Source: a virus
Lineage: Duplodnaviria > Heunggongvirae > Uroviricota > Caudoviricetes
Reading direction: 5' to 3' (one strand)
Length of the DNA: 64,000 bases
IMG/VR virus record: IMGVR_UViG_3300027985_001053
Shown here: piece after piece, positions 14,871-51,379 of the stretch
How positions within the stretch are numbered: the first letter of the stretch is position 1
Layout of the letters: the number at the start of each line of letters is the position of its first letter
Translations under genes and position numbers: made by a program
The notes under the pieces: model-generated
Seen by the model: the letters and a program-made list of their open reading frames with translations, nothing else
What the model was told of the DNA's origin: nothing
The model's database searches: none

Positions 14871-14889
14871 GAAAACCCTCAAAATATAT

Positions 14890-16411: not shown

Positions 16412-16432
16412 TCTAGAAAAAAGGAGAATAAT

Positions 16433-16618
16433 ATGAAAGACATTAAAATTGAAGAAGTTACAGAATTTGATAGTTATTTGTCAAGCTCCGCAAGTTTTGA
16501 AATGAATTTGCTTTTAGCAAATTCATCTTTTTTAAAAGGCGTTAAAAGTCATGAAGCAGAGAAACTAAATGTTTCTCTTATCGACCTACATTTCGGGCGT
16601 GACGTCCGGAATGCATAA
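16433..16618 (+). CDS. hypothetical protein
   Basis: 61 aa; RBS aaggagaa. Confidence 0.35.
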   Translation: MKDIKIEEVTEFDSYLSSSASFEMNLLLANSSFLKGVKSHEAEKLNVSLIDLHFGRDVRNA

Positions 16619-16630
16619 AAACTTTTTATC

Positions 16631-16666
16631 AAGTATATTGACACAAATTAATATACTCGATAATAT
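16631..16666 (+). promoter_or_regulatory. promoter family B copy 1: TTGACA, 17-bp spacer, TAATAT, with palindrome caagtatat/atatactcg
   Basis: sigma70-like spacing; same cassette at 18450 and 19216. Confidence 0.6.
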
Positions 16667-16671
16667 ATACA

Positions 16672-16716
16672 AGCTTGCAATGGTTTTTATAGTAGTTCGA
16701 ATCTACTAGCAAGCTA
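16672..16716 (+). ncRNA. tRNA-like minihelix leader, copy 1 (acceptor stem agcttgc/gcaagct, T-arm tagtag-TTCGAAT-ctacta, discriminator A)
   Basis: starts 6-7 nt after the -10 box, so it would be the 5' end of the transcript. Confidence 0.5.
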
Positions 16717-16742
16717 TAAATAAAAATTTTAAGGAGAATAAG

Positions 16743-17234
16743 ATGGAATTTACTTTAGAAGAAATCAATGAAATTATGGATAGAAATAATGGGGATCTAA
16801 TCCTCAAGGATACACTTATCAAAACATTACCAGAAGGGTTAAAGGTTCAAGGAAACTTGGATCTGACAGATACCGACATTCAAGAGTTACCAAACGGGTT
16901 AATAGTTGGAAAAAACTTAAACTTGTACTTTACAAAGGTAACGTCGTTACCTGAAAATTTAAAAGTTGGTGGATGGGTAGAGCTACAAGGGACTAAGATA
17001 GAGACGTTACCAAAAGGTTTAGAAGTAGGCTTATCCCTAGATGCAAGCTATACACCAATGACAACACTACCAAGAGATTTAAAAATTGGTGGTTACCTTA
17101 GTCTGAGAGGGACTAAGGTAATAACATTACCAAAAGGGTTAACCGTAGGAACCGTTTTAGATATAACGAATACAAAAGTTAAGTCTTTACCTAAAGACTT
17201 AAAAGTAGGAGGTAAAATCTACAGCGATCTATAA
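16743..17234 (+). CDS. LRR-family protein, short form (7 repeats, no C-terminal domain)
   Basis: MEFTLEEINEIM leader, then 20-residue repeats LxLxxTxIxxLPxxLxVGGx. Confidence 0.6.
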   Translation: MEFTLEEINEIMDRNNGDLILKDTLIKTLPEGLKVQGNLDLTDTDIQELPNGLIVGKNLNLYFTKVTSLPENLKVGGWVELQGTKIETLPKGLEVGLSLDASYTPMTTLPRDLKIGGYLSLRGTKVITLPKGLTVGTVLDITNTKVKSLPKDLKVGGKIYSDL

Positions 17235-17237
17235 GAT
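17232..17237 (+). promoter_or_regulatory. TAAGAT -10-like box preceding minihelix copy 2
   Basis: same spacing to the minihelix as in copy 1; weak -35. Confidence 0.3.
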
Positions 17238-17244
17238 TAATACA

Positions 17245-17290
17245 AGCTTGTAATGGTTTTATATAGTGGTTCAATTCCACTAGCAAGCTA
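17245..17290 (+). ncRNA. tRNA-like minihelix leader, copy 2 (agcttgt/gcaagct with a U-G pair; T-arm tagtgg-TTCAATT-ccacta)
   Basis: compensatory change in the T-stem relative to copy 1. Confidence 0.5.
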
Positions 17291-17314
17291 TAAACCAAAA
17301 TTTAGGAGTTTAAT

Positions 17315-17857
17315 ATGGAATTCGAATTTGTAATGGGATCTACAATCCATAATACAATTATTATTGCAGAAATAAATATCAGAAATCATTTTTCAATATC
17401 TTTTAATGAGGTTCTTCCGTTTGAAATGACAGAAGAAAGAGATCTAGAACAAAAAGAAAGCTTTCTTGAAAATTTTGAAGAAGAAGAAAGACAAGAAATA
17501 GAGGAACAGATCTATTATCTTGGTTATGAAGGATATTTTGATATATCTTTATATTCAAATAATTTTAATTTTCCAGAACTGGAAAATGATATCTATTTTG
17601 AATCTATAGGGTGTGGTCAGGGGGATCATAGAAAAGATCTTATATACTCTATTAACTCTATTGATAAAAATACAGATACAAAAGATATCAATACAAAGAT
17701 CTTTGACCTCTGGGATAGATTACATTTAAAGGAAATGGAGAGTTTATCAGAATCTGATAAACAAGAAATTAATAACTTAATTGAAAAAATCAAAACGTTT
17801 GATCTAGATGATCAAATGGAAATATTAGCAAGAAAATTGCTAATAGAGGATAAATAA
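17315..17857 (+). CDS. hypothetical acidic protein
   Basis: 180 aa ORF downstream of minihelix 2. Confidence 0.45.
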   Translation: MEFEFVMGSTIHNTIIIAEINIRNHFSISFNEVLPFEMTEERDLEQKESFLENFEEEERQEIEEQIYYLGYEGYFDISLYSNNFNFPELENDIYFESIGCGQGDHRKDLIYSINSIDKNTDTKDINTKIFDLWDRLHLKEMESLSESDKQEINNLIEKIKTFDLDDQMEILARKLLIEDK

Positions 17858-17858
17858 C

Positions 17859-18437
17859 ATGAAACCATATGATAGTATAAAAACGATGTATAAGTCAAAA
17901 AGTCTTATACATCGTAAAAAAGTTTGTTTAAACAATGATGTTGTTATTGTAACAACAGACGAGCAAGCTAATAAGTTAAGTCCATTGACTTTATATTCTT
18001 GGATAGGACGCCTAAACGTTAATCTAAGAATGTACAATAGCAGTAGTCAATTCGGTGATATGGTTTTTTCAAACAAAGAAGACGCTGTTATTGAAAAAAT
18101 CAGAGAATTGAAGTTTATACAAAAAAATGTTAATGACTGTATTAATGACTTAAAAGAAGAAATTTCTACTATACGACGTATTAGATCTATAGCTAAAAAG
18201 CTATATACTTTCTCTATGGAAAATTCATATTTAAGCAAACGAGATCTAGATCTTATTATATCTAGATATGAATTAAACTTAACCTTAAATGAGTTTAAAA
18301 ACTTAAGCTTAATTATGGGAATTCAATTTAAGAGTAATAATCTTGTTTCTATATGGTTAGGAAAAAAATCAAAACTTAAGATTGAAACAATTATTAAAAT
18401 AATAGAAAAATTGAGATATCAAATAAAAATAAATTAA
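17859..18437 (+). CDS. hypothetical protein
   Basis: 192 aa ORF. Confidence 0.45.
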   Translation: MKPYDSIKTMYKSKSLIHRKKVCLNNDVVIVTTDEQANKLSPLTLYSWIGRLNVNLRMYNSSSQFGDMVFSNKEDAVIEKIRELKFIQKNVNDCINDLKEEISTIRRIRSIAKKLYTFSMENSYLSKRDLDLIISRYELNLTLNEFKNLSLIMGIQFKSNNLVSIWLGKKSKLKIETIIKIIEKLRYQIKIN

Positions 18438-18449
18438 ATTATCTTTATC

Positions 18450-18485
18450 AAGTATATTGACAAAAATTAATATACTTGATAATAT
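18450..18485 (+). promoter_or_regulatory. promoter family B copy 2 (TTGACA 18457..18462, TAATAT 18480..18485)
   Basis: palindrome caagtatat/atatacttg flanks the -35 box and spacer. Confidence 0.6.
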
Positions 18486-18516
18486 GTAGAAAGATAAAAA
18501 CTTGAGGAGTTTGAAG

Positions 18517-19203
18517 ATGAATAATTTTGACATGAACAGTAAAGGAATAAATATCATAGCTAATATTTTTTATGATGAATGTCTTTCGCAAGACAACTTT
18601 GACCGAAATTGTAAACTTATAGATAAAAACAAAGATTTTTTTATATACACTGATTATGGTAACTTAAGCAGTGATTTCTATATATCTTTGAAAGAAGAGT
18701 CCAGAACAGATCTCGAAGATGTTATAGAACAAGAACAAATTTATTGCGGATGCTCTATAGATGAGCTTGATATTCAAGAGCTTCAAGCTCTTATAGAAAA
18801 TGAGTTATCATATATAGATTTATTTTTTATCTGTAAAAAATATCATCTTGAGATTGAACAAAATTATGAGTTATTAACGATTCGAGGATTCTCTCAAGGT
18901 GACATCTTAAAAATATTTGTAAATATTGAAGAGTTTGAAAAGGTGACAGGAGCTGTTTTTAACGATATCAAAGAATCTTTAAAAGAAGATTTAATTAATT
19001 ATTGTTATAAAACACCATTAACTGCACGAATAACAATAAACGACCAAGAGATCTATTTGGACGGAATTGACGGCAATTATATTTATTATGATGCAGATAC
19101 TAAAAAACAAATTATAGAAATTTGTTTAAAAAGTGTATCAGATATTGATCAAGATCTTTTAAAAGAAGAACTTGAGGAATTATTACCAGAAGAAATAAAT
19201 TAA
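18517..19203 (+). CDS. hypothetical acidic protein
   Basis: ATG at 18517 preceded by gaggag; ORF-track start 18502 is a TTG inside the RBS. Confidence 0.45.
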   Translation: MNNFDMNSKGINIIANIFYDECLSQDNFDRNCKLIDKNKDFFIYTDYGNLSSDFYISLKEESRTDLEDVIEQEQIYCGCSIDELDIQELQALIENELSYIDLFFICKKYHLEIEQNYELLTIRGFSQGDILKIFVNIEEFEKVTGAVFNDIKESLKEDLINYCYKTPLTARITINDQEIYLDGIDGNYIYYDADTKKQIIEICLKSVSDIDQDLLKEELEELLPEEIN

Positions 19204-19215
19204 ACTAATTTTATC

Positions 19216-19251
19216 AAGTATATTGACAAAAATTAATATACTTGATAATAT
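19216..19251 (+). promoter_or_regulatory. promoter family B copy 3 (TTGACA 19223..19228, TAATAT 19246..19251)
   Basis: identical cassette. Confidence 0.6.
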
Positions 19252-19282
19252 TTAGAAAGATAAAAACTTGAGGAGTTTAAAA

Positions 19283-19579
19283 ATGATAAAAATGATAGTC
19301 CAAGACACGTATACAAAGAGAGATATAAACGGAAACGTTTATCACGCAATTACAATTATCAACCTTGAAAATAGAGAATCCTTTACTACTAGTTCTCCCA
19401 ACTTAAGTAATGTTACCAGTATTTTGCAGAAAGCTGGTTTCGATTATAGTCAGATTTACACAATTGAAACTTGTACAGGATCGGCAAGGCATAGCTCTTT
19501 ACCAAAAAGTATATACCTTGATCCTTGCAGGTATACGGAAGAATGGAAAAAACAATTAATAGGAATTAATTGTTTATAG
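19283..19579 (+). CDS. hypothetical protein
   Basis: ATG at 19283 with gaggag RBS. Confidence 0.45.
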   Translation: MIKMIVQDTYTKRDINGNVYHAITIINLENRESFTTSSPNLSNVTSILQKAGFDYSQIYTIETCTGSARHSSLPKSIYLDPCRYTEEWKKQLIGINCL

Positions 19580-19582
19580 GAT

Positions 19583-19612
19583 GTTAAGAGGTATTCATAA
19601 ACCTCTTAATAT
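19583..19612 (+). terminator. hairpin aagaggt-attcataa-acctctt followed by aatattt
   Basis: inverted repeat after the stop of the 19283 gene. Confidence 0.4.
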
Positions 19613-19644
19613 TTAAAATTAAGATGACGACAAAAGAGGATAAT

Positions 19645-20484
19645 ATGGAATATACTTTAGAAGAACTGAATAAAATGATGGATGGAAACTATGGAAACTT
19701 AGATTTAAACTTCAATGATACTAAAGAAATATCATTACCGATATCGTTACCTAAAGGGTTAACTGCTCGAGGATGGTTAGATTTAGCTCATACGGAAATT
19801 GAATCATTACCTGAAGGGTTAACGGTTAGGGGTACCTTATATTTAAGATATACCCCAATTATAGAATTACCAGAAGGGTTAACTGTAGGAAGAACCTTAG
19901 ATTTAGAAGGTACTCCAATTAAATCTTTACCAAAAGGGTTAACCGTAGGAGGAGACTTAAATTTAAAATATACTAAAATTAAATCACTACCAAGAGATTT
20001 AAAAGTTGGTGGAAAAATCTACAGTGATTTACCTAAAAATGAACTAAATTACACAAAACTTCAACAAGGTGAGTATGTTGAAAATTCATACCTATATGCC
20101 GATGAAATATTCACTCTTGTTAAATCTAAAAAGTCTTTTGATAAATACACATATTTTATTGGAGAGTTTAAAGGTCAAAACGTACTTTATGATGGTACTT
20201 ATTACGCACATTGTGAAAACATCAAGAAAGGACTTAGGGATCTTAACTTCAAACATTCTCAAGATAGAAGAATTGAACAATACAAAAATTTAAAATTAAC
20301 AAGTAATCTATCTTTTGATGAATCAAAAACGATGTACAGAATTTTAACTGGAGCATGTAGGCAAGGTACTGAAAGTTTCATTAGTAACTTAAAAACAATA
20401 AAAGATCAGTATACAATACAGGAATTAATAGATCTAACTGTTAATCAATATGGGCATGAAGTTTTTAAGAAGTTTTTTAAATAA
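19645..20484 (+). CDS. LRR-family protein (5-6 repeats plus conserved C-terminal domain)
   Basis: MEYTLEELNKMM leader; RBS agaggataat identical to other family members; ORF-track start 19624 includes the RBS. Confidence 0.6.
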   Translation: MEYTLEELNKMMDGNYGNLDLNFNDTKEISLPISLPKGLTARGWLDLAHTEIESLPEGLTVRGTLYLRYTPIIELPEGLTVGRTLDLEGTPIKSLPKGLTVGGDLNLKYTKIKSLPRDLKVGGKIYSDLPKNELNYTKLQQGEYVENSYLYADEIFTLVKSKKSFDKYTYFIGEFKGQNVLYDGTYYAHCENIKKGLRDLNFKHSQDRRIEQYKNLKLTSNLSFDESKTMYRILTGACRQGTESFISNLKTIKDQYTIQELIDLTVNQYGHEVFKKFFK

Positions 20485-20498
20485 AAAGTTGTACTTTT

Positions 20499-20539
20499 CA
20501 CTTGTTTATGTTGACTAAAATATAAATAAGTGATAAGAT
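20499..20539 (+). promoter_or_regulatory. promoter family A copy 1 (TTGACT 20511..20516, 17 bp, TAAGAT 20534..20539) inside palindrome cacttgtttat/ataaataagtg
   Basis: five copies in total. Confidence 0.6.
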
Positions 20540-20546
20540 TATTATA

Positions 20547-20592
20547 AGCTTATAATGGTTTTATATAGTAGTTCGATGCTACTAACAAGGTA
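20547..20592 (+). ncRNA. tRNA-like minihelix leader, copy 3 (T-arm intact, acceptor 3' strand degenerate)
   Basis: tagtag-TTCGATG-ctacta; 5' strand agcttat lies within palindrome tataagcttata. Confidence 0.35.
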
Positions 20593-20603
20593 AGGAGATT
20601 TTT

Positions 20604-20924
20604 ATGATTATGGCATTTAAAAGATATCTAGAAATAAATGATTTTACGCTTATAGATTGTATTGCTTTAGAAAATAGCACCTATCAAATTTCTTATTATG
20701 ATAATAAGAGCAAGGCAATAAAAACAAAACTTGTACCAAAATATAAAAAGTCTTATACGCTAAGATATGTTAATAGAAATGAAGTTTTTTATGTAGATTT
20801 TAGTCCTATGACTTCAAAGGAAGCTAAAATTATTAAAAATAATTCTCTGTTTTATCCTAACCGAACAATAGATATTGTTCCATATGGTTTTTATCTTGAG
20901 TGGAAAAATGGGCAATTGCTATAA
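20604..20924 (+). CDS. hypothetical protein
   Basis: 106 aa; RBS aaggagat. Confidence 0.45.
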   Translation: MIMAFKRYLEINDFTLIDCIALENSTYQISYYDNKSKAIKTKLVPKYKKSYTLRYVNRNEVFYVDFSPMTSKEAKIIKNNSLFYPNRTIDIVPYGFYLEWKNGQLL

Positions 20925-20938
20925 AATAGCATATAACA

Positions 20939-20984
20939 AGCTTGTAATGGTTTTATATAGTAGTTCGATTCTACTAGCAAGCTA
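20939..20984 (+). ncRNA. tRNA-like minihelix leader, copy 4 (agcttgt/gcaagct; tagtag-TTCGATT-ctacta)
   Basis: same architecture, followed by RBS agaggag and an ATG. Confidence 0.5.
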
Positions 20985-21008
20985 TAAATCAAAATAGAGG
21001 AGTTAAAT

Positions 21009-21239
21009 ATGTTTACAAAAAGAAATAGAATTTCCAGTATCGAGAAAAAGTTAAATATCCGAACGGAATTAAAACTTAAAGATTATAGTGATAGTTTAAA
21101 TTCTACTTTTAAAGTATTTAGACTAATCGATGAGTATCCTACAAATACGACAGGAATCTATAAATCAACTGGTCAGAAATATGAATATGATGGTATTTTT
21201 ACTAAGCAACAATTGATTGACGAATGCAACAAACTATAA
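21009..21239 (+). CDS. hypothetical protein
   Basis: 76 aa ORF. Confidence 0.4.
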   Translation: MFTKRNRISSIEKKLNIRTELKLKDYSDSLNSTFKVFRLIDEYPTNTTGIYKSTGQKYEYDGIFTKQQLIDECNKL

Positions 21240-21264
21240 ATCAGATTTTTAGGAGTGATGAAAA

Positions 21265-21690
21265 ATGGATTATGAAACTTTAATAAATAACAAGATCGAA
21301 CAGCATAAAAAATTAAAACAAGAAAAAAAGGATAAAAGGACTTCTCAAGAAATAAGACTTGAGGAAGTAGCTAATCAAATTGAAAAGTTTTATGAAGCTA
21401 TAGACAAAAGTAACTTAAGATTTAACAAAAATAACTCTATAGAGAGTGTAACCTTTAAACAGCTATTTCATAAAAACAATATGCTACTCCGTAGATCTAC
21501 AGGTACCGAAATTAAGTTTAAAACACCTATTTTAAGATACGAACATCTTACACTAATGTTAAATAGCAATCTAGACTTGATATTTGTATTAAGTTCTATG
21601 TATGCTTCGAGTACACCAAATAAAATATTTAGAAATATTGACGATTTAATTGGTTTTATGACTACTAAAATTATTGATATGAGCATATAG
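21265..21690 (+). CDS. hypothetical protein
   Basis: 141 aa ORF. Confidence 0.4.
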   Translation: MDYETLINNKIEQHKKLKQEKKDKRTSQEIRLEEVANQIEKFYEAIDKSNLRFNKNNSIESVTFKQLFHKNNMLLRRSTGTEIKFKTPILRYEHLTLMLNSNLDLIFVLSSMYASSTPNKIFRNIDDLIGFMTTKIIDMSI

Positions 21691-21705
21691 AAAAAGGAGT
21701 TTAAG

Positions 21706-21999
21706 ATGAATATAGAACTAATTGTAAATAATGAACCATGTTGGTTACATGATGTAAGATTTAATGCAGAAGCGTTAAATGATTATTTAACATATGATGG
21801 TGATAATTACCATATATCAGAAACTGATTTTAATTGGTGGTCGGAATATAACAATAAATATAATAATGCCGATGATAAATTAAAAGAGCTGTTTGAGAAA
21901 AATGAAGAGTTAAAAGAGGAATTCTTCCATTTTATCATAGAGAAAGATTTTAATGATTACCCTGAGCAAATTCTTTATTTTATAGAGTTGAATAAATAA
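21706..21999 (+). CDS. hypothetical acidic protein
   Basis: 97 aa; RBS aaggag. Confidence 0.4.
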   Translation: MNIELIVNNEPCWLHDVRFNAEALNDYLTYDGDNYHISETDFNWWSEYNNKYNNADDKLKELFEKNEELKEEFFHFIIEKDFNDYPEQILYFIELNK

Positions 22000-22025
22000 G
22001 GTTTTTAGTTAAAATGTGTACTTTT

Positions 22026-22066
22026 CACTTATTTATGTTGACTAAAATATAAATAATTGGTAAGAT
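22026..22066 (+). promoter_or_regulatory. promoter family A copy 2 (TTGACT 22038..22043, TAAGAT 22061..22066)
   Basis: conserved cassette; right palindrome arm partly degenerate. Confidence 0.55.
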
Positions 22067-22096
22067 TATTACAAGATAAAGACAAGAGAGGATGTT

Positions 22097-22858
22097 ATGG
22101 AATATACTTTAGAAGAACTAAATAAAATGATGGAAGAGAATGATGGAAACTTAAGTTTATATAATACTCCGATTAAATCATTACCAGAAGGGTTAAAGGT
22201 TGGAGGTTGGTTAGATTTAAGAAATACCCCAATTAAATCGTTACCAGAAGGATTAACAGTTGGAGGATATTTAGATTTAGAAAATACTGAAATTGAATCT
22301 TTACCAGAAGGATTAACCGTTGGAGGATATTTAGCTTTAAGGTATGCTCCAATTACAACGCTACCAGAAGATTTAAAAGTTGGAGGTACCATATTTAGGG
22401 ATTTACCTGAAAATGAACTCAATTATACAAAACTTAAACAAGGTGATTATGTTAAAGATGAATATCTATATGCCGATGAAATCTTAACTCACATTAAAGC
22501 TAAAAAATCTTTTGATAAGTACACATATTTTATTGGTAAATTTAAAGATAAAAACGTACTTTATGATGGAACTTATTATGCTCACTGTAAAAACATCAAA
22601 CAAGGAATTAAGGATCTTAGCTTCAAACATGCTAAAGATAGAAGAATTGAACAATACAGAAATCTCAAGCTAACAAGTATTCTATCTTTTGAAGAATCAA
22701 AAACAATGTATCGAGTTTTAACTGGAGCATGTAGGCAAGGAACTGAAAGCTTTATTAGTAACTTAAAAACAATAAAAGATCAGTATACAGTACAGGAATT
22801 ACTAGATCTAACTGTTAATCAATATGGGCATGAAACTTTTAAGAAGTTTTTTAGTTAA
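22097..22858 (+). CDS. LRR-family protein (4 repeats plus C-terminal domain)
   Basis: MEYTLEELNKMM leader; C-terminal YTYFIGKFKDKNVLYDGTYYAHCKNIKQG...TGACRQGTESF. Confidence 0.6.
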   Translation: MEYTLEELNKMMEENDGNLSLYNTPIKSLPEGLKVGGWLDLRNTPIKSLPEGLTVGGYLDLENTEIESLPEGLTVGGYLALRYAPITTLPEDLKVGGTIFRDLPENELNYTKLKQGDYVKDEYLYADEILTHIKAKKSFDKYTYFIGKFKDKNVLYDGTYYAHCKNIKQGIKDLSFKHAKDRRIEQYRNLKLTSILSFEESKTMYRVLTGACRQGTESFISNLKTIKDQYTVQELLDLTVNQYGHETFKKFFS

Positions 22859-22872
22859 AAAGTTGTACTTTT

Positions 22873-22913
22873 CACGTATCTATGTTGACTAAAATATAGA
22901 TACGTGATAATAT
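22873..22913 (+). promoter_or_regulatory. promoter family A copy 3 (TTGACT 22885..22890, TAATAT 22908..22913); palindrome arms cacgtatctat/atagatacgtg
   Basis: both palindrome arms differ from other copies by matching changes. Confidence 0.6.
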
Positions 22914-22943
22914 TATTACAAGATAAAGAAAAGAGAGGATAAT

Positions 22944-23558
22944 ATGGAATATACTTTAGATGTGTTGAATAAAATGATGGAAGAGAATGATGGAGACTTA
23001 GATTTAAAACATACTGGGATTGAATCGTTACCAGAAGGGTTAACAGTTGGAGGATATTTAGATTTAAGCTATACTTCAATTACATCATTACCTAATGGGT
23101 TAACTGTTGGAGGATGGTTAGATTTAAGAAATACTCAAATTACAACACTACCAGAAGGGTTAACGGTTGGAGGTAGCGTATATTTAAGATATACTCAAAT
23201 TACATCGTTACCTAAAGGATTAACGGTTGGAGGAACCTTAGATTTAGAAGGTACTACAATTACATCGTTACCAAAAGGATTAACCGTTGAAGGAAGCTTA
23301 TATTTAGACTATTCTCGAATAACTTCATTACCAGAAGGGTTAACTGTTGGAGGTTGGTTAGATTTAAGTTATGCTCCAATTGAATCGTTACCAGAAGGGT
23401 TAACTGTTGGAGAAATCTTATATTTAGAAGGTACTAAAATAACATCGTTACCACAAGATTTAAAAGTTGGTGATAAAATCTACGGAGATTTACCAAAGAA
23501 GGAACTACACTGCACAAAACTCCAACAGGACGATTATATTGCATTTGAATACCTATAA
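22944..23558 (+). CDS. LRR-family protein (8 repeats), C-terminal domain deleted
   Basis: ends ...YIAFEYL*; the following 23559..23600 encodes a remnant LAPVKSKKFFS* of the family C-terminus. Confidence 0.55.
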   Translation: MEYTLDVLNKMMEENDGDLDLKHTGIESLPEGLTVGGYLDLSYTSITSLPNGLTVGGWLDLRNTQITTLPEGLTVGGSVYLRYTQITSLPKGLTVGGTLDLEGTTITSLPKGLTVEGSLYLDYSRITSLPEGLTVGGWLDLSYAPIESLPEGLTVGEILYLEGTKITSLPQDLKVGDKIYGDLPKKELHCTKLQQDDYIAFEYL

Positions 23559-23619
23559 GCGGAAGGAATCTTAGCTCCTGTTAAATCTAAGAAGTTTTTT
23601 AGTTAAAATGTGTACTTTT

Positions 23620-23660
23620 CACTTATTTATGTTGACTAAAATATAAATAAGTGATAAGAT
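23620..23660 (+). promoter_or_regulatory. promoter family A copy 4 (TTGACT 23632..23637, TAAGAT 23655..23660)
   Basis: palindrome cacttatttat/ataaataagtg. Confidence 0.6.
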
Positions 23661-23690
23661 TATTACAAGATAAAGAAAAGAGAGGATAAT

Positions 23691-24008
23691 ATGAAAAGTT
23701 TTAGAGAAATGAGTCCTAAGGAATGGAGTGAAGCAGTAGAGAAACTAGCTAGTGATTTATCAAATACAGACTTAAATGTATTCCGAGAAAGTACATTGAG
23801 AAGAATGTATGCTGATATGTATGGTGTAGATGATGATATAGAAAGAGCTTATTCCATAGAGGATATAAAGAACTGTTTATATGACGAGGATATTACTGAT
23901 GAACAAGCTGATAAAATATCCATCTGGCTAGAGACTAAAGGAGATAGTACTCTTACATTTTGGGAGAATATAACGAATGCTTATGATACATTAAAGGAGG
24001 AGTTCTAA
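23691..24008 (+). CDS. hypothetical acidic protein
   Basis: 105 aa, same 5'UTR as the LRR genes. Confidence 0.45.
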   Translation: MKSFREMSPKEWSEAVEKLASDLSNTDLNVFRESTLRRMYADMYGVDDDIERAYSIEDIKNCLYDEDITDEQADKISIWLETKGDSTLTFWENITNAYDTLKEEF

Positions 24009-24565
24009 TGGTATACATACTTTACAGCAATAAAATAAAATATCTGCATAGTCTGGAAGGAAAAGAGATTAACAAAAGTGATTTAGAATCTCTAGGTACT
24101 ACTTACATGCCAATAACTGATTTTACTGAGTTGTTTAATAATGATTATGATGCTATTAAAAGCATGAATCGTAACGGTCACATAACATATATTAACGTAA
24201 AAGAAAATAAGTCTGATACTCATAATGAAGTATTATATAAAGAAATAACAGCAAGCCGTCAAATATACTTAATAGACAATACTTATTTTGTATATAATCA
24301 TGAGTTTACATATTTCAATGTAGCTTTAGATGAAAAGAGTTGTTTGAACAGTAGTAATAGTTTAGGGTCTTTTGATACTGAAGAACTTGCTATGGAGTTT
24401 ATAGATAAACTTCAATCAGAAAATAAGTCTGATACTCCAGAAATCGTAAAAGACTTAAATACGATAAAAGAGTTTGTTTTAAGATTTGATACTCCTGATG
24501 ATTTAGATTTAGAAGTATCAAAATTACTAGATAAATATATTGCTAAATATTCGAGAGGAGAATAG
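24008..24565 (+). CDS. hypothetical protein
   Basis: 185 aa; start overlaps the previous stop. Confidence 0.45.
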   Translation: MVYILYSNKIKYLHSLEGKEINKSDLESLGTTYMPITDFTELFNNDYDAIKSMNRNGHITYINVKENKSDTHNEVLYKEITASRQIYLIDNTYFVYNHEFTYFNVALDEKSCLNSSNSLGSFDTEELAMEFIDKLQSENKSDTPEIVKDLNTIKEFVLRFDTPDDLDLEVSKLLDKYIAKYSRGE

Positions 24566-24566
24566 A

Positions 24567-24950
24567 ATGAGACATAGCATAAAAAATGAAATCGTGGCTG
24601 GTTTTAAAACAGCTTTATTATGGATACACCAAGAAGATTTTGAAGATATCGATACTTTTTCAGATTCTGCTGAATTGTTTATTGATAACTTAGTAAAGGA
24701 TTTTATCAAAGAGACTAATCTCTTTGACCTAATGGGAGCTTTTACACCTTTAAACGATGAATACTCTATAGGGGAACTTATAGGACATGATTTGTTTTTA
24801 TCGGTGGGAGGATTTGGAGCTGGTTTCTTGAGTAAACCTAATATCTATAATGGTTTCGAAAATAATCTTGATAACTTTGTAGAAAAAAAGGTTACATGGA
24901 TAAACGATATTTTCATAAATGATGAAAGTCATGTTATAGAGATAGAGTAA
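24567..24950 (+). CDS. hypothetical protein
   Basis: ATG at 24567 with gagaggag RBS (ORF-track start 24540 lacks one). Confidence 0.4.
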   Translation: MRHSIKNEIVAGFKTALLWIHQEDFEDIDTFSDSAELFIDNLVKDFIKETNLFDLMGAFTPLNDEYSIGELIGHDLFLSVGGFGAGFLSKPNIYNGFENNLDNFVEKKVTWINDIFINDESHVIEIE

Positions 24951-25037
24951 TAAATGTTGGTACTTTTTACTAGGGAAAAAGTAGTAGTTTTTAGATAAGA
25001 GTAGTAAATATTACAGTTTTAAGAGAGGATAAAGAAG

Positions 25038-25664
25038 ATGTTTAAAGAAAATGATTTAGTAAAATCTAAAGTAAGTAGTGAAATCTATACAGTTCAAAAG
25101 GTTTCAGATTATGTTGTACTAAGTAATGGTGGTAGATACTTAGAGGAAGAGCTTAGAGAAGCTACTAAAGAGGATCTATACCAAGAGTTGGAATCTAAAG
25201 TAAGAGTTTGGGTTAATAGAGAGTTTAACAGTATTCCTTTAAGATTAGTGGAAGCTCTGGTAGAAAATGAAGGACAGAATTTATCAGAGTTTATACATCC
25301 TTTAGACTGTTTAGACATTAAAGAATCTATTGAAAATATATCTTCCCAGCTTGAGGATGATGATTTTTCAGAAGAGGATAGAGAGTATTTAGAAGAGGAG
25401 TTGCAAACTCTTAATGAAAAGTTAGATAGCTTAAACGATGACAATTATCCTTTACATGGTACATTGTTTGAGTTGAACTCTACAGATGAAGATATTATAG
25501 AAGCAGCTAAGAAAATAGGACTAGGAGTTATATCTGGGAATGATTACTTTAACTCTATGTTATTTATGACAGAAACTGGAAGCAACTTCTATAGAAAGTT
25601 TTGGATACCTTTATTCTTGGAGCTATATCCTGATACTAGGTATGATGGTATAGAGATAGGTTAA
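25038..25664 (+). CDS. hypothetical highly acidic protein
   Basis: 208 aa, D/E-rich. Confidence 0.45.
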   Translation: MFKENDLVKSKVSSEIYTVQKVSDYVVLSNGGRYLEEELREATKEDLYQELESKVRVWVNREFNSIPLRLVEALVENEGQNLSEFIHPLDCLDIKESIENISSQLEDDDFSEEDREYLEEELQTLNEKLDSLNDDNYPLHGTLFELNSTDEDIIEAAKKIGLGVISGNDYFNSMLFMTETGSNFYRKFWIPLFLELYPDTRYDGIEIG

Positions 25665-25738
25665 AGAGAGTGTTATTATATCCTTCTACCGTTGGTGGAA
25701 GGTAGTATTACTAATATGAGTTATGGAGATAAATAGAT

Positions 25739-25957
25739 ATGGAAAATATACTAATTAAAGATGTGGTATTACTGAATACTGTAATAGATTTTACAATGGC
25801 ATTAAACAATGTATCTGTAAAGGATTTAAAAGATATGGAGCTATCTAAGGCTGTTGATTATGTTATAGGGTTAATTCCTGAAACTAAGAAAGATGAAATG
25901 GATATTGATAATTTGCATGAAGTAGTTGAATACTGCTTGATAAACAAATTAAGCTAA
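25739..25957 (+). CDS. hypothetical protein
   Basis: 72 aa ORF. Confidence 0.35.
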   Translation: MENILIKDVVLLNTVIDFTMALNNVSVKDLKDMELSKAVDYVIGLIPETKKDEMDIDNLHEVVEYCLINKLS

Positions 25958-26161
25958 TAGAATTATGGTTAAAGTAGGCTTTAATGTTTATTTTAACCAA
26001 TCAAAACTTTTCCTAGAGCGTAGACTGTACTTTTTACCTCTAGGAGTTGACTAAAAATCATTTTACTGTTTATTTTATAATTTATTTAATTGGTAAATTT
26101 CACCAATTGACTGGCGAGATTTACCAATCGAAAAAATTAAATAAAAATCATAGCTTTTTGA

Positions 26162-26190
26162 TTGACACAACAGTATATGTATGTTAATAT
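26162..26190 (+). promoter_or_regulatory. sigma70-like promoter TTGACA, 17 bp, TAATAT
   Basis: gattgacacaacagtatatgtatgttaatatt; inverted repeat ttggtaaat/atttaccaa upstream at 26088..26140. Confidence 0.5.
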
Positions 26191-26213
26191 TATTACATAA
26201 AGGAGATAATCAG

Positions 26214-26690
26214 ATGGATTTAAGAGCAATAGATACTTTAGTACTACCAATGACAGATAAGAGATATTTAGTATGTTCTTTTGATGGTAATGAGTTATCA
26301 TCTCTAAAGGATATATGTGATATGGAGACTAATACCTTGGATAAGGCTTTAAAACTTTGTGGAATATTATCTGAGAAGTATGAGGTATGTTTTGTATATG
26401 ATATATTACATGGAAGGGTATCGTATACAGGAGTGACAACACCTTCTGGATGTTTTGTTAAGAAGATACAGTATGATTTGATAGAGTCTTATTTTAGAAA
26501 TATTTATCATATAGAGGATCTTTATAGAGTAGGTTTTATAGGAGCTAAGGATATGCTTATAGATACTTTTCCTAAAGATACTTTATTTACGATGGTACCA
26601 GGTTTAAGTGTTGTTGTAGCGTATACTAGAGAGTTTAATGTAATATATGATAAGTTTGTTACTACTTATCAAGTAATAGGGACTATTTAA
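26214..26690 (+). CDS. hypothetical protein
   Basis: ATG at 26214 with aaggagata RBS. Confidence 0.45.
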   Translation: MDLRAIDTLVLPMTDKRYLVCSFDGNELSSLKDICDMETNTLDKALKLCGILSEKYEVCFVYDILHGRVSYTGVTTPSGCFVKKIQYDLIESYFRNIYHIEDLYRVGFIGAKDMLIDTFPKDTLFTMVPGLSVVVAYTREFNVIYDKFVTTYQVIGTI

Positions 26691-26695
26691 AGTCT

Positions 26696-26965
26696 TTGCT
26701 TTATGCTATGGTGGAGGTAAATACTATGCTAACAGGATATAGAAGATTTAAAACGATTGTTGATTTACTTAAGAGACAATCGGAGGCTTATACTAAGATT
26801 CATAGTGTGAATGCTTGGGTATATGATTATGGAACTTCTGAAGAGATTAAAGAGCATAATAAAGTAATTAGAGAAGGCTCTGAGGAATTAAGAGTTGTTG
26901 AGGAAGAACTTAAAGCTTTAGATGTTACCTTTGAAGAAGTAACACATGCTTATAGATGTTACTAG
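26696..26965 (+). CDS. hypothetical protein
   Basis: 89 aa ORF. Confidence 0.4.
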   Translation: MLYAMVEVNTMLTGYRRFKTIVDLLKRQSEAYTKIHSVNAWVYDYGTSEEIKEHNKVIREGSEELRVVEEELKALDVTFEEVTHAYRCY

Positions 26966-27067
26966 TCTAACTTTAAGATGTGTATTAGTGGTTTTAAAGT
27001 ATTTAATGCTTTAGAGTTTAATAAGAGTATATCTAAGTATACTACATTATATAGAGGAGTTGTTATA

Positions 27068-27309
27068 TGAAGAAAATAACACAATTAGCAAATAATCAAT
27101 TAACTTATACAGATGGAGATAAAAGAGTATTTCAAAGCTATAATACTATTATTGCAGTAATTGAGAATGGTAAAACATTCTTAGACGAAACCTCGTGAAA
27201 TTATTCAAAGACTACAGCCAAGTGGAGAAATATCTTTTTAAATATGACTACTGAGGAGACAAAGAAAGCTATCAAAGAAGGTGATACCACTCTTAAGGAT
27301 CTTAATTAG
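27068..27309 (+). pseudogene. small ORF interrupted by an in-frame TGA at 27196..27198
   Basis: MKKITQLANNQLTYTDGDKRVFQSYNTIIAVIENGKTFLDETS*NYSKTTAKWRNIFLNMTTEETKKAIKEGDTTLKDLN; RBS ggaggagt upstream. Confidence 0.35.
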
Positions 27310-27372
27310 CTAATGCAGAAATCAACCTACGATTACTTTTTAAGAAGTTTTTAATTAAAAAGTCGTAATTAT

Positions 27373-27413
27373 CACTTATTTATGTTGACTAAAGCATAAA
27401 TAAGAGATAATAT
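27373..27413 (+). promoter_or_regulatory. promoter family A copy 5 (TTGACT 27385..27390, TAATAT 27408..27413)
   Basis: conserved cassette with palindrome. Confidence 0.6.
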
Positions 27414-27443
27414 TATTACAAGATAAAGAAAAGAGAGGATACT

Positions 27444-29165
27444 ATGGAATATACTTTAGAAGAATTAAATAGAATGATGAAAGATAATGATGGAAACTTA
27501 GATTTAAGACATACTAAAATTACATCACTGCCTAAAGGATTAACAGTTGGAGGTAACTTATATTTAAGAAATACTCAAATTACCTCGTTACCAGGAGATT
27601 TAATTGTTGGAGGAGACTTAGATTTAAGTTATACTCCAATCACATCGTTACCAGGAGATTTAATTGTTGGAGGAGACTTAGATTTAAGTTATACTCCAAT
27701 CACATCGTTACCAGACGATTTAATTGTTGGAGGAGACTTAGATTTAAGTTATACTCCAATCACATCGTTACCAGACGATTTAATTGTTGGAGGTAGCTTA
27801 TATTTAAGCAATACTCAAATTAAATTATTACCAAAAGGATTGAAGGTTGGAGGTGGGGTAGATTTAAGATATGCTCCGATTAAATCATTACCAGAAGACT
27901 TATCTGTTGGAAGTAGCTTAGATTTAAGTCGTACTCAAATTAAATCATTACCAGAAGGGTTAAAGGTTGGAGGTTGGTTAGATTTAAGATATGCTCCAAT
28001 TAAATCGTTACCAGAAGAGTTAATGGTGAAAGGTAGTTTATATTTAGAAAATACTCAAGTTACCTCGTTACCAGAAGGGTTCATGGTTAGAGGTAGCTTA
28101 TATTTAAGTCATACTCAAATCACATCGTTACCAAAAGGGTTAACGGTTGGAGGAGACATAGATTTAAGATATGCTCCAATTACATCGTTACCAGAAGGGT
28201 TAACCGTTGGTGGTAATTTAGACTTAGAAGGTACTAAAATTACCTCGTTACCAGAAGGGTTAACTGTTGGAGGTTGGCTAGATTTAAGTCATACTCAAAT
28301 CACATCGTTACCAAAAGGGTTAACGGTTGGAGGAGACATAGATTTAAGCGTTACTCCGATTACAACACTACCAGAAAGGTTAACGGTTGGAAGAAATCTA
28401 GATTTTAGATATACTAAAATTACCTCGTTACCAGAAGGGTTAACTGTTGGAGGTTGGCTAGATTTAAGAAATACTCAAATTACATCATTGCCTAAAAGGT
28501 TAACTGTTGGAGGATATTTAGATTTAAGTTCTACTCAAATTACATCGTTACCTGAAGGATTAACCGTTGGAGGTAACTTATATTTAGAAGGTACTAAAAT
28601 CACATCGTTACCGAAAGGGTTAACGGTTGGAGGATATTTAGCTTTAAGTAATACTCCAATTAAATCGTTATCAATAGATTTAAAAGTTGGAGGTACCATA
28701 TTTAGCGATTTACCTAAAAATAAAGTCAAATATACAAAACTTCAACAAGGTGACTATAGTGAAGCTGACTATCTGTATGCAGATGGAATCTTAACTCATA
28801 TTAAAGCTAAAAAATATTTTGATAAATATACATATTTTATTGGAGAATTTAAAGATAAAAATGTACTTTATGATGGAACTTATTATGTTCACTGTAAAAA
28901 CATTAAGCAAGGAATTGAGGATCTTAACTTCAAACATGCTAAAGATAGAGGGTCTGATCACTACAAAAATCTAAAATTATCCAGTATTCTATCTTTTGAA
29001 GAATCTAAAACGATGTACAGGATTTTAACCGGTGCGTGTAGACAAGGTACTGAAAGTTTTATTGAAAATTTGAAAATAATAAAAGAACAGTATACCATCC
29101 AAGAATTAATAGATCTAACTGTTAATCAATACGGTTATGAAACTTTTAAGAAGTTTTTTAGTTAA
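27444..29165 (+). CDS. LRR-family protein, long form (20 consecutive 20-residue repeats plus C-terminal domain)
   Basis: repeat consensus LDLxxTxITSLPEGLTVGGx; C-terminal domain shared with the 19645 and 22097 genes. Confidence 0.65.
   Translation: MEYTLEELNRMMKDNDGNLDLRHTKITSLPKGLTVGGNLYLRNTQITSLPGDLIVGGDLDLSYTPITSLPGDLIVGGDLDLSYTPITSLPDDLIVGGDLDLSYTPITSLPDDLIVGGSLYLSNTQIKLLPKGLKVGGGVDLRYAPIKSLPEDLSVGSSLDLSRTQIKSLPEGLKVGGWLDLRYAPIKSLPEELMVKGSLYLENTQVTSLPEGFMVRGSLYLSHTQITSLPKGLTVGGDIDLRYAPITSLPEGLTVGGNLDLEGTKITSLPEGLTVGGWLDLSHTQITSLPKGLTVGGDIDLSVTPITTLPERLTVGRNLDFRYTKITSLPEGLTVGGWLDLRNTQITSLPKRLTVGGYLDLSSTQITSLPEGLTVGGNLYLEGTKITSLPKGLTVGGYLALSNTPIKSLSIDLKVGGTIFSDLPKNKVKYTKLQQGDYSEADYLYADGILTHIKAKKYFDKYTYFIGEFKDKNVLYDGTYYVHCKNIKQGIEDLNFKHAKDRGSDHYKNLKLSSILSFEESKTMYRILTGACRQGTESFIENLKIIKEQYTIQELIDLTVNQYGYETFKKFFS
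27591..27770 (+). repeat. three perfect or near-perfect tandem 60-bp DNA repeats inside the LRR gene
   Basis: ccaggagatttaattgttggaggagacttagatttaagttatactccaatcacatcgtta, three copies. Confidence 0.85.
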
Positions 29166-29200
29166 CCCTAGGAAGTTATATGCAATAAAGAGGAGAAAAC

Positions 29201-29503
29201 ATGAAAATATGTACACTGTGCGAGTATGAAATAGAGGAATCATCTGATAGCTGCCTAAAGAAAGGTAAATGTCCGGTGTGTGGATCTGAGGAACTTGTAG
29301 GTACAGAAGATTTATTCGATGTTAATAAAGGAATAAACTTTATCTGTTCAAAAGCAAGTAATAAAGATGATAGATTGCAGCTTATTAAAACTTTACTTAA
29401 AGGACTTTCTATCACTAAGAAAACGGAGATAGTTCAAGGAAATTGCTTTGAAGGGTTCACATCAATGTATGATAAACATATTATTTTAAAGGAATTTTGT
29501 TGA
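29201..29503 (+). CDS. zinc-ribbon protein
   Basis: CTLCEYE...CPVCGSEE. Confidence 0.4.
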   Translation: MKICTLCEYEIEESSDSCLKKGKCPVCGSEELVGTEDLFDVNKGINFICSKASNKDDRLQLIKTLLKGLSITKKTEIVQGNCFEGFTSMYDKHIILKEFC

Positions 29504-29549
29504 CACTAATACCTATTAATGGTAATATTTAATAGTTGAAGGAGAAAAT

Positions 29550-30236
29550 ATGGAAAAATTTTTAAACAAACATAATGTTGATGCAGATGTAGATTGTATA
29601 GCTGAAGGAGTTTACTCTGTTAGAGTAAATAATAAAGACCTGGACCTAGTAGATGTAGAAAATTGTTTGCGAGAGCAACCCGATAAAGTTTACTTAGACT
29701 ATTCATTGCTTGCAAAACAAGAGATTCAAAAAACTTATGCAAGAATAATTGAAAGAGTTCAAGATGTTGAGATAGGTAAAACTTTAGAGGTTGAAAAGTT
29801 CAGTATCTTTAAAAAAGATGATAATCTTTTTGAAATTAAAACTAAGAATATTAAAACCCCAAGACTGTCATCTATAAATAACTTACCTTATGCACTTCAC
29901 GAGCTTCATTTACAGGCTTTGAGAGATAAAATAGTTCTTTTCCCTGGAACCGAGGGAAATGATGTAGATAGAACAGCATTCGCTTTTAGCGAAGTATATG
30001 CTAATCTGAAAAAACTTGTAAGACATCATCTTAGAATAGGAACCAGCAATGCTGAGTATGACTTACTCTCTGATCTATTGTATGTTGCTACAGGTTATGA
30101 AGAAGAGGATGAAGCTCTAATGTTATTTAATCTATATTTGGACAGAATACTAAATGAAGCGGATGAGCTAATGTCACCTGTTTTGAAAACTGTTTTAGTA
30201 AAGTTTATTAATAAAATATTTAGGAGTGCTGAATGA
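29550..30236 (+). CDS. hypothetical protein
   Basis: 228 aa; RBS gaaggagaa. Confidence 0.45.
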   Translation: MEKFLNKHNVDADVDCIAEGVYSVRVNNKDLDLVDVENCLREQPDKVYLDYSLLAKQEIQKTYARIIERVQDVEIGKTLEVEKFSIFKKDDNLFEIKTKNIKTPRLSSINNLPYALHELHLQALRDKIVLFPGTEGNDVDRTAFAFSEVYANLKKLVRHHLRIGTSNAEYDLLSDLLYVATGYEEEDEALMLFNLYLDRILNEADELMSPVLKTVLVKFINKIFRSAE

Positions 30237-30601
30237 AAGTATATATTAACGAATATGGTCTAAGTTATTTACCTCTACATAGAGTATATGATGCTAAAGC
30301 TAAAAGACTTGTTCATGTAGATGAAAATCTTATAGATGATTTAATAAGTAGGTACGATATTCCAGCAAAAAAGAGATTTGGATTGTACCAGTTATCTAAA
30401 CAAGATTTTAATATTTGGGGTGCATTTTTTAATGGACTTCAACAGGTAGAGCTTATCAAAGCTGCCTTAGTATATCTTACAAAAGATGAAGAGGAAATTT
30501 TTAACGAAGCGTTTGACTGGGTAGATACTTTGGAAATACCTATGAGATGTTTAGAAAGATTGGAACAAATAAGAGGAGAAAGAAATGGAAAAATTAACTG
30601 A
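30233..30601 (+). CDS. hypothetical protein
   Basis: 122 aa, translationally coupled (ATGA). Confidence 0.45.
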   Translation: MKVYINEYGLSYLPLHRVYDAKAKRLVHVDENLIDDLISRYDIPAKKRFGLYQLSKQDFNIWGAFFNGLQQVELIKAALVYLTKDEEEIFNEAFDWVDTLEIPMRCLERLEQIRGERNGKIN

Positions 30602-31112
30602 AATAGAAAAAGTAAAGGATTTAGTATATCAAGGAAAATCTCAAAAAGAAATTGCTGAGATTTTAGGTAAAAGTCAAGTATTTATTGGAACATGTATATC
30701 AAGACTTAGAAAGTCTAAAAACTTTAATATACATTTTGCTCATGGCAGACATGTAAATAAAGGAAGACTAGAACTTGTAAGATTTTTTCACAAGTTTAAT
30801 ATGCTTCATGGATTTTTTCCTAAACAAGCTTGGGTGGCAAAACTTTGGGGAGTAAGTAGACAGGCTATTAACCAAGCGAACCCGAACAAAGGGGAGGAAA
30901 TAGGAAAGTTTGTTAGACTATCTGGGCCAGTATATATCTCAGACAGTTTTAATAAGTTTATACAAGATTACGCTGAGCTTTTTGGTTTTTCATGGGCAGA
31001 AGCTCTTAAAAGTTTTACACACAATGTAGATTTCTCAAAAATAAACTTTGAAGATTTAAAAAATTCTATGATTGAAAAAACTGAAAACGAGCTTGATCAA
31101 GATTTAAAATAA
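30585..31112 (+). CDS. HTH DNA-binding protein (sigma region-4-like helix-turn-helix)
   Basis: SQKEIAEILGKSQVFIGTCISRLRK. Confidence 0.4.
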   Translation: MEKLTEIEKVKDLVYQGKSQKEIAEILGKSQVFIGTCISRLRKSKNFNIHFAHGRHVNKGRLELVRFFHKFNMLHGFFPKQAWVAKLWGVSRQAINQANPNKGEEIGKFVRLSGPVYISDSFNKFIQDYAELFGFSWAEALKSFTHNVDFSKINFEDLKNSMIEKTENELDQDLK

Positions 31113-31132
31113 TTAGGGTATTCCCCCTAATT
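31111..31132. terminator. bidirectional hairpin aattaggg-tattc-ccctaatt between convergent genes
   Basis: 8-bp inverted repeat at the strand switch. Confidence 0.5.
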
Positions 31133-31135
31133 ATT

Positions 31136-31576
31136 TTAAAGATCACCTATAGCTGTTGTATTATTGATACTATCAATATTTTTAATAAACTTAATGGCAA
31201 AAGGTAAATCGTCTAAAGTATCAAGGAAATAAGTGTTATAGCATTTACTGGAGCCGTCTAACAAATCTTTTATAGCCTCAAAGCTTTTAATCTGATGCTT
31301 AGAAAATCCATCTAATTTAAAAAATATAATTGTGTTTTTAGGGGAATAAGCGGAATCAACTAATTCCGCTATTGAGTATACACCTGACATATCCTTTGTA
31401 ATAACAAAAAGATGCGTATCACACATTTCTTTTTCAATATCTTCTATGTTTTTAGCTTCTGGAGTCCAGTCATCTACTACTGGATTGAAAAAGTTAACTT
31501 TTTCTTTAATTAGTACAGGGATAACATCTTTACGATAATCATCCCCTGCTGTAGTTCCACCTAAAAATATTTTCAT
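31136..31576 (-). CDS. nucleoside 2-deoxyribosyltransferase-like protein (tentative)
   Basis: MKIFLGG... N-terminus and size typical of the phage NDT-like family. Confidence 0.35.
   Translation of the reverse strand: MKIFLGGTTAGDDYRKDVIPVLIKEKVNFFNPVVDDWTPEAKNIEDIEKEMCDTHLFVITKDMSGVYSIAELVDSAYSPKNTIIFFKLDGFSKHQIKSFEAIKDLLDGSSKCYNTYFLDTLDDLPFAIKFIKNIDSINNTTAIGDL

Positions 31577-51303: not shown

Positions 51304-51379
<76 letters not shown>

Follow-up and report, generated by a model that had tools for sequence, protein, structure and literature searches.

Eight small reiterated cassettes, each combining a promoter motif with a long stem-loop, lie between the small plus-strand genes of the tailed phage recorded as IMGVR_UViG_3300027985_001053 (Caudoviricetes), of which one stretch of 64,000 nucleotides (nt) was analysed (the window; G+C content 32%). 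The best explanation, to which an about even chance is given, is that these cassettes are composites resembling the promoter-early stem-loop (PeSL), in which a stem-loop with an early promoter inside it would act on transcripts reading through. PeSL are small reiterated cassettes of the T4-like phages RB49 and phi1 (Arbiol et al. 2010, PMC2839356), and this described class already covers the architecture of the present cassettes. From the letters of the DNA we infer promoter activity, early timing and a role of the hairpin in RNA. In the proposed mechanism, a strong early promoter of the host sigma-A/sigma-70 type, with a consensus -35 box, a 17-bp spacer and a mostly TG-extended -10 box, would be embedded in an AT-rich stem-loop of 16–20 positions soon after the upstream stop codon. 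Transcripts from the cassette promoter would start downstream of the hairpin and would not include it, and read-through transcripts from the upstream gene would carry it on the coding strand. There it would terminate or attenuate transcription, or serve as a processing or 3'-stabilising site, so that most expression of each small accessory-gene unit would come from the unit's own promoter.

Two families of cassettes are distinguished by their promoter motifs. Family A follows the pattern TTGACT-N17-TAAGAT/TAATAT (TAAKAT), with -35 boxes beginning at 20511, 22038, 22885, 23632 and 27385; an earlier sequence-only reading of this DNA had given these five positions and the 17-bp spacer exactly. 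The five matches compare with 0.15 expected, and none of 100 shuffles reached five. The pattern TTGACA-N17-TAATAT also has five matches (16638, 18457, 19223, 26162 and 29500) against 0.05 expected, and three of the five (16638, 18457 and 19223) are palindromic and form family B. The sequence-only reading had rightly counted three palindromic copies of this family, but its coordinates (16631, 18450 and 19216) are those of the palindrome ('caagtatat') and not of TTGACA, and they miss the palindrome starts (16630, 18449 and 19215) by 1 nt. Both remaining matches are plus-strand promoters without a palindrome: one, at 26162–26190, is TG-extended (z -0.09), and the other, at 29500–29528, overlaps the end of gene 29201–29503 (z -0.35), these z values being for DNA folding and no better than shuffled. 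A degenerate family A copy (TGTACTTTTTAC..GTTGACTAAAA, 26026–26056, plus strand) has neither an enclosing palindrome nor a good -10 box. In six of the eight cassettes the -10 box is preceded by TGn (five identified by scan, the rest read from the sequence).

All eight cassettes are on the plus strand. In family B, copy B1 (16624–16666) consists of stem arms 16624–16641 and 16648–16665 around the loop CACAAA, with the -35 box TTGACA at 16638–16643 and the -10 box TAATAT at 16661–16666; its RNA folding energy (dG) is -11.8 kcal/mol (z -6.1), with one A·C mismatch. It is followed by a 45-nt tRNA-like element and then by 16743–17234, a gene for a leucine-rich-repeat (LRR) protein. Copy B2 (18445–18485) has a perfect stem of 16 positions (18445–18460 and 18467–18482, loop CAAAAA; dG -16.0, z -5.5), a -35 box at 18457–18462 and a TG-extended -10 box at 18480–18485, and its 5' untranslated region (UTR) ends at the ATG at 18517. 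Copy B3 (19207–19252) pairs 19207–19226 with 19233–19252 around CAAAAA (dG -17.7, z -7.0), its boxes lying at 19223–19228 and 19246–19251, and its UTR ends at the ATG at 19283.

The loop of every family A copy is GACTAA. Copy A1 (20494–20539; stem 20494–20512 and 20519–20537) has its -35 box TTGACT at 20511–20516 and its -10 box TAAGAT at 20534–20539, shows an A-to-G change in the left arm that retains a G·U pair, and precedes a degenerate tRNA-like element and gene 20604–20924. Copy A2 (22021–22066; stem 22021–22039 and 22046–22064; boxes 22038–22043 and 22061–22066) is the weakest of all (dG -11.1), with one C·U break and one U·G pair; its UTR (22067–22096) leads to LRR gene 22097–22858. Copy A3 (22869–22913; stem 22869–22886 and 22893–22910; -35 box 22885–22890, -10 box TAATAT 22908–22913) precedes UTR 22914–22943 and LRR gene 22944–23558. 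Copy A4 (23615–23660; stem 23615–23633 and 23640–23658; boxes 23632–23637 and 23655–23660) is followed by UTR 23661–23690 and the ORFan 23691–24008, and its RNA folds with -18.3 kcal/mol on the plus strand versus -11.8 on the minus strand. Copy A5 (27368–27413; stem 27368–27386 and 27393–27411; -35 box 27385–27390, -10 box TAATAT 27408–27413) leads through UTR 27414–27443 to the LRR gene 27444–29165, which encodes 573 amino acids. LRR paralogs thus follow B1, A2, A3 and A5, and ORFans follow B2, B3, A1 and A4, in line with the earlier description of the downstream genes; the flanking genes are either LRR paralogs or without a Pfam or PHROG function. An almost identical UTR had been assigned to all cassettes, and this holds for A2 to A5 only: B2 and B3 have a common UTR of their own, and A1 and B1 carry the tRNA-like element. 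The proposal of a co-regulated block is plausible, because all copies share one promoter class.

Arm lengths were scored allowing G·T pairs and one mismatch. On this basis the arms measure 16–20 positions and enclose a loop of 6 nt, GACTAA in family A and CAAAAA or CACAAA in family B. The stem takes in the first 2–4 bases of the -35 hexamer, and the right arm extends into the first 3–4 bases of the -10 hexamer. A resemblance of the arms to the Fur box was dropped, as the TGATAA with which the right arm ends on its outer side is the TG of the extended -10 box followed by the first bases of the -10 hexamer. The 11-bp arms first described for family A (cacttatttat/ataaataagtg) are indeed present, within larger palindromes that span 42 nt in family A and 38 nt in family B, the centre being shifted by 2 nt relative to the -35 box. 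In five copies 3–10 nt separate the upstream stop codon from the stem; the gap is 21 nt in A2, and the remnant of an LRR 3' end widens it to 56–57 nt in A4 and A5. Each palindromic copy folds into a single dominant hairpin, with an RNA dG of -11 to -20 kcal/mol and z of -3.2 to -7.0; folded as DNA, the hairpins reach dG -5 to -11 and z down to -6.8. In seven of the eight copies the plus-strand RNA hairpin is more stable than its minus-strand counterpart, by 2.2–10.8 kcal/mol, because the pairs that deviate from Watson-Crick geometry are mostly G·T and lie on the coding strand, where they become G·U in RNA. A search of Rfam gave no meaningful match for the hairpins.

It is pairing, rather than the sequence of the arms, that is conserved. 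Among the five family A copies, 92.6% of cells are paired. Changes on both sides with pairing kept occur three times: in A3 one U-A pair has become G-C and another C-G, and A5 has A-U in place of the outermost C-G. The two in A3 are the mirrored changes to cacgtatctat/atagatacgtg that had been pointed out for the copy at 22873. Four further changes are one-sided and create or remove a wobble pair; pairing is lost in three cells. Besides the change of its outermost pair, A5 converts T·T to A-U and G·U to G-C and has one A·A break. When substitutions were placed at random in the same numbers of sites, equal pairing was retained with P = 0.0003–0.004. Moreover, B2 and A4, aligned from their outer ends, differ in 7 of 16 pairs and are identical in 9; five of the differing pairs are doubly compensated, two are changed on one side yet still paired, and none is broken. 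The arms of A, A3 and B differ at 2–7 positions and each remains self-complementary. The complementarity runs continuously over 15–19 positions, and the arm motifs were not found as isolated half-sites elsewhere in the window.

The likeness to PeSL extends over several features. PeSL combine a near-consensus sigma-70 promoter with an AT-rich upstream stretch and a stem-loop between or overlapping the -35 and -10 boxes; they reach from a stop codon to the next Shine-Dalgarno sequence or ATG and are found among ORFans of hyperplastic regions (PMC2839356). In the present phage, a near-consensus promoter of the sigma-70 type with a spacer of about 17 bp is likewise overlapped at its -35 and/or -10 box by a stable stem-loop, the gap from stop codon to Shine-Dalgarno sequence or ATG is occupied by the cassette with an AT-rich stretch upstream, and eight reiterated copies are clustered in 16.6–27.4 kb among ORFans and accessory genes. 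PeSL mark junctions of gene gain and loss, and the present cassettes may do so as well; G·T pairs were likewise allowed in the published stems. In lacZ fusions, PeSL behaved as strong promoters, and termination by the stem-loop was about equal to that of rrnB T1; they were further implicated in gene shuffling and the formation of mini-circles (PMC2839356). A follow-up found PeSL in PST/T4 and nt-1/KVP40 as well, where the stems are also short but of other kinds (Comeau et al. 2014, PMC4122927). The published cassettes have short stems (G_n/C_n, A3-4G3/C3T3-4 or AGNA/TCNT), whereas the stems described here have 16–20 AT-rich positions and surround the whole -35 box and spacer. All PeSL described so far come from T4-like phages with Gram-negative hosts (PMC2839356, PMC4122927), whereas the present phage belongs to an orphan lineage of 32% G+C with Firmicute-type signals.

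With intrinsic terminators the hairpin shares its place directly after a stop codon, a 6-nt loop and greater stability on the transcribed strand. The cassette hairpins additionally resemble hairpins between convergent genes of the same phage (12014–12056, 31103–31140 and 51302–51343), which have AT-rich perfect stems of 15–17 bp and are strand-symmetric within 3 kcal/mol. As these are long AT-rich stems, one of them without a U-tract, stems of this type appear to be the usual 3'-end signal of the phage. This resemblance and the strand asymmetry lend indirect support to termination or attenuation by the cassette hairpins.

Several results weigh against the PeSL-like interpretation. The cassette stems contain only 2–4 G-C pairs and lack a canonical U-tract, their tails being ATTATTAC in family A and UAUGUAGA, UAUUUAGA or UAUAUACA in family B. 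Unlike typical intrinsic terminators, the cassettes mostly escape a consensus scan: of the seven sites called in 14000–31500, A3, with four G-C pairs and the tail TAATATTATT, is the only promoter-embedded hairpin, and the other copies have 2–3 G-C pairs and 3–4 U among the first 8 tail bases. The covariation among the family A copies was matched by 12 of 500 shuffles, and the counts of changes are not independent, because these copies are paralogs that share ancestry and represent few events. Template switching at quasi-palindromes can produce mirrored changes in one step, without selection. The register of the palindrome relative to the -35 and -10 boxes is nearly constant across both families, and the symmetry could therefore matter for the promoter DNA itself and not for RNA. 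Additionally, no related phage was found in any collection searched.

Template switching is central to the explanation that the palindromes have no function, the promoters having been duplicated together with the LRR genes and the palindromes kept perfect by quasi-palindrome mutation. Common descent of a unit containing LRR 3' and 5' ends would account for the reiteration, and single switching events for the mirrored changes. It would not lead one to expect the same architecture in two families of different sequence, nor one-sided changes that preferentially keep wobble pairs, which template switching does not predict. Further, TTGACT recurs in or beside the loop of two more palindromes (17883–17915, on the minus strand, and 26089–26128), and long palindromes are 3–10 times commoner than in shuffled sequence and concentrated in the block: 26 distinct ones were counted in the window, 15 of them within 16–28 kb, versus 1–8 in shuffled sequence. 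An absence of function is hence considered very unlikely.

The symmetry had originally been ascribed either to a dimeric operator-binding protein or to a selected hairpin, and the data favour the latter and disfavour a single operator. As an operator, the palindrome would be bound by one or more dimeric phage or host proteins that occlude the -35 box, spacer and -10 box and jointly shut off the early promoters. Inverted repeats in a promoter core are the classic operator layout, and the lambda/P22-type repressor, Cro or Arc operators similarly place an inverted repeat over the promoter core and repeat it at several promoters; the phi29 p4 sites at A2b/A2c/A3 share this likeness (PMC3100819). 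The nearly fixed register in both families fits an operator as well, and the mirrored changes of A3, explicable by template switching, do not require selection on pairing. Candidate regulators are encoded in the window, namely a helix-turn-helix protein at 30585–31112 (PHROG transcriptional regulator, E 4e-4) and a Rha-family protein at 1033–1644. However, complementarity over 15–19 consecutive positions goes well past a half-site, the arms being 2–3 times half-site length, and what is conserved here, in contrast to phage operators, is complementarity and not arm sequence or spacing. The half-site sequence differs among A, A3 and B, and its spacing is not fixed; with palindrome spans that differ by 4 bp between the families, at least two proteins would be needed. 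The bias towards G·T on the coding strand would be meaningless for duplex DNA, and no isolated half-sites occur elsewhere in the window. For these reasons the hairpin is favoured over a single dimeric operator, and operator function as such is regarded as unlikely.

A different possibility is that the structure acts at the level of DNA, as a cruciform or hairpin that is extruded under negative supercoiling or behind a transcribing polymerase and switches the promoter, or as a recombination hotspot that shuffles the flanking LRR and ORFan genes. The arms are long, AT-rich and nearly perfect, with a 6-nt loop and the strongly negative z values for DNA folding given above, and they enclose the promoter exactly. 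The LRR remnants that border A4 and A5 on the left indicate that the cassettes lie at rearrangement junctions. An engineered promoter of Escherichia coli was reportedly regulated by cruciform extrusion in the work of Horwitz and Loeb in 1988. PeSL, for their part, have been shown to recombine and to form mini-circles (PMC2839356). A cruciform is strand-symmetric, yet the imperfections are biased to G·T on one strand, and no direct sign of recombination products was seen in the window. The sole second sample, Logan contig L001 (SRR7216773), is 100% identical to window 23664–27435 (3.8 kb) and thus adds no variation. Action at the DNA level is accordingly judged improbable. A bolder version joins both roles: beyond being a passive terminator, the hairpin would be a structural switch on the enclosed promoter, where extrusion of the AT-rich arms, driven by supercoiling or by read-through transcription, could either inactivate the -35 and -10 boxes or make them accessible, and the cassettes would also be portable recombination modules that expand the LRR array in a non-T4 Firmicute phage. 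Only a slim chance is attached to it.

Two further known systems are worth comparing with the PeSL-like interpretation. Hairpins also serve as promoters in phage N4, where stems of 5–7 bp with 3-nt loops, devoid of -35 and -10 boxes, depend on a virion RNA polymerase. The association of a promoter with a hairpin-forming inverted repeat is common to both cases; an N4-type hairpin promoter was dropped as a candidate in view of stems of 16–20 positions, 6-nt loops and a full sigma-70-type promoter. In phage T7 and Bacillus phage SP82, hairpins processed by RNase III lie between early genes. These are likewise reiterated and conserved structures of about 20 bp on the coding strand between early cistrons, and differ from the present ones in that they are not known to be built around the promoter of the next gene. 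No RNA polymerase turned up among the window proteins scanned; the early promoters of N4 are DNA hairpin promoters read by the virion enzyme (PMC4496689).

The spread of the family A cassettes is closely tied to the LRR genes. Five LRR paralogs are present (16743–17234, 19645–20484, 22097–22858, 22944–23558 and 27444–29165), with repeats of 60 nt (20 amino acids) in 4 to more than 20 units and a C-terminal domain of about 150 amino acids that is conserved in most of them and deleted from 22944–23558. The repeat unit of family A, of about 108 nt, comprises the '..KKFF*' tail of an LRR gene, the cassette, the UTR and an LRR start. Since the unit carries both LRR ends, the A copies arose with the duplication and recombination of LRR genes and are largely a by-product of these events. 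Upstream of A4, a remnant of the LRR C-terminal domain with the '..KKFF*' tail is found at 23559–23606 (plus strand). Upstream of A5, a 22-nt remnant of an LRR 3' end (TTTTAAGAAGTTTTTAATTAAA, 27338–27359, plus strand) follows an unrelated gene with a DUF8033 domain; this 22-nt repeat occurs at 22837, 27338 and 29144. Among gut Clostridia phages that are unrelated to this one and mostly temperate, homologues of the LRR proteins (490 matches) are widespread as early genes. At least three more LRR paralogs (P0001, P0002 and P0004) lie on the same 129.7-kb source contig. The contigs L002–L004 and L010–L012, which carry LRR homologues, come from unrelated and mostly temperate phages; in these contigs the LRR gene has no such cassette or lies inside an early operon.

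The small genes form a plus-strand block of about 16.2–31.1 kb, and myovirus-like late genes form a minus-strand block. The latter includes genes for a tail sheath (45286–47142) and a head protein (54172–55668), each recognised by a PHROG match only, a terminase (52002–54098; weak match) and a portal protein (57995–59893), whose match to PF07230 (Portal_T4) is below the cut-off (21.5 vs 22.9 bits). A phage sigma factor is encoded at 35082–35732. The terminase reaches 22–27% identity at best with those of cultured phages, and no T4-like phage is among the 12 matches listed. Megablast of window 20000–28000 and tblastn of the portal protein gave no match in INPHARED. Pattern scans of IMG/VR for an arm-agnostic promoter and for the tRNA-like element had 0 matches, and IMG/VR scans seeded with proteins of the phage found nothing. 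Similarly, a scan of JGI metagenomes yielded two short LRR contigs and nothing else, and the helix-turn-helix protein has no homologue but itself among 5.8 billion proteins. A scan of genome contigs with the promoter pattern returned three unrelated Clostridia promoters, all without a palindrome.

Some other elements of the window deserve mention. The palindrome at 17883–17915 falls within the start of gene 17859–18437 and contains a promoter-like TTGACT-N18-TATCAT on the minus strand; that at 26089–26128, with TTGACT in or beside its loop, has no -10 box. Directly after the convergent-gene hairpin ending at 51343, a (TCTA)n microsatellite is found at 51344–51368. Immediately upstream of the early block, 14870–16200 is a non-coding stretch of 1.3 kb with GGGTATTTGGGTATTTTTGGT iteron-like repeats (15216–15341), five tandem repeats of about 61 nt each (15458–15829) and long palindromes at 15887–15934, 15993–16034 and 16085–16121; possible functions are those of a replication origin or a genome terminus. 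In the DUF8033 gene (27067–27309, plus strand) a single TGA stands in frame at codon 44, and the gene caller of the Logan contig read through it to give a product of 80 amino acids. Genome-wide recoding of the stop codon was rejected, since no other real gene of the window has an internal TGA; the gene may be a pseudogene or a read-through site. An unusual phage cargo is the 581-amino-acid protein encoded at 31751–33496 (minus strand), in which a domain for methyl-accepting chemotaxis signalling (PF00015, E 3e-24) is accompanied by a weakly matching Cache sensor domain.

The tRNA-like element found after B1 and A1 occurs four times in 5'UTRs and intergenic gaps, intact at 16672–16716, 17245–17289 and 20939–20983 and degenerate at 20548–20590. 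It resembles the 'top-half' minihelix of a tRNA: an acceptor-like stem of 7 bp is joined by a linker of 12 nt, which includes GG, to a T-arm-like stem of 6 bp whose UUCRAUN loop corresponds to the tRNA T-loop consensus, and the T stem abuts the 3' strand of the acceptor as in tRNA. One pair is changed in a compensatory manner from A-U to G-C, and in three copies the fold has an ensemble frequency of 0.73–0.77; neither ARAGORN nor Rfam made a call for the element. Transcription from B1 is predicted to start at about 16673, just where the acceptor stem has its 5' end. The element looks like an insertion at ACAAG of the family A UTR, and it could be a signal for processing by RNase P or RNase Z, stabilise the 5' end or act as a decoy of tRNA. 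Minus-strand genes for an RtcB RNA ligase (13075–14202; PF01139, E 1e-48), a radical-SAM protein (12065–13051) and a peptide deformylase (11039–11521) are also present. The presence of RtcB beside these reiterated elements is a hint of tRNA repair or of a decoy that counters anticodon nucleases.

In the proposed design, one module of 45 nt would provide each accessory gene with its own promoter and an insulating hairpin. With perfect, wobble-containing, broken and doubly compensated stems, the eight copies form a natural experimental series that could distinguish RNA-level from DNA-level action of a hairpin around a promoter. If, in this orphan gut phage of low G+C content, they are functionally equivalent to PeSL though unrelated to them in sequence, this would suggest repeated evolution of the design, as a convergent solution of phages for the expression and shuffling of accessory genes.

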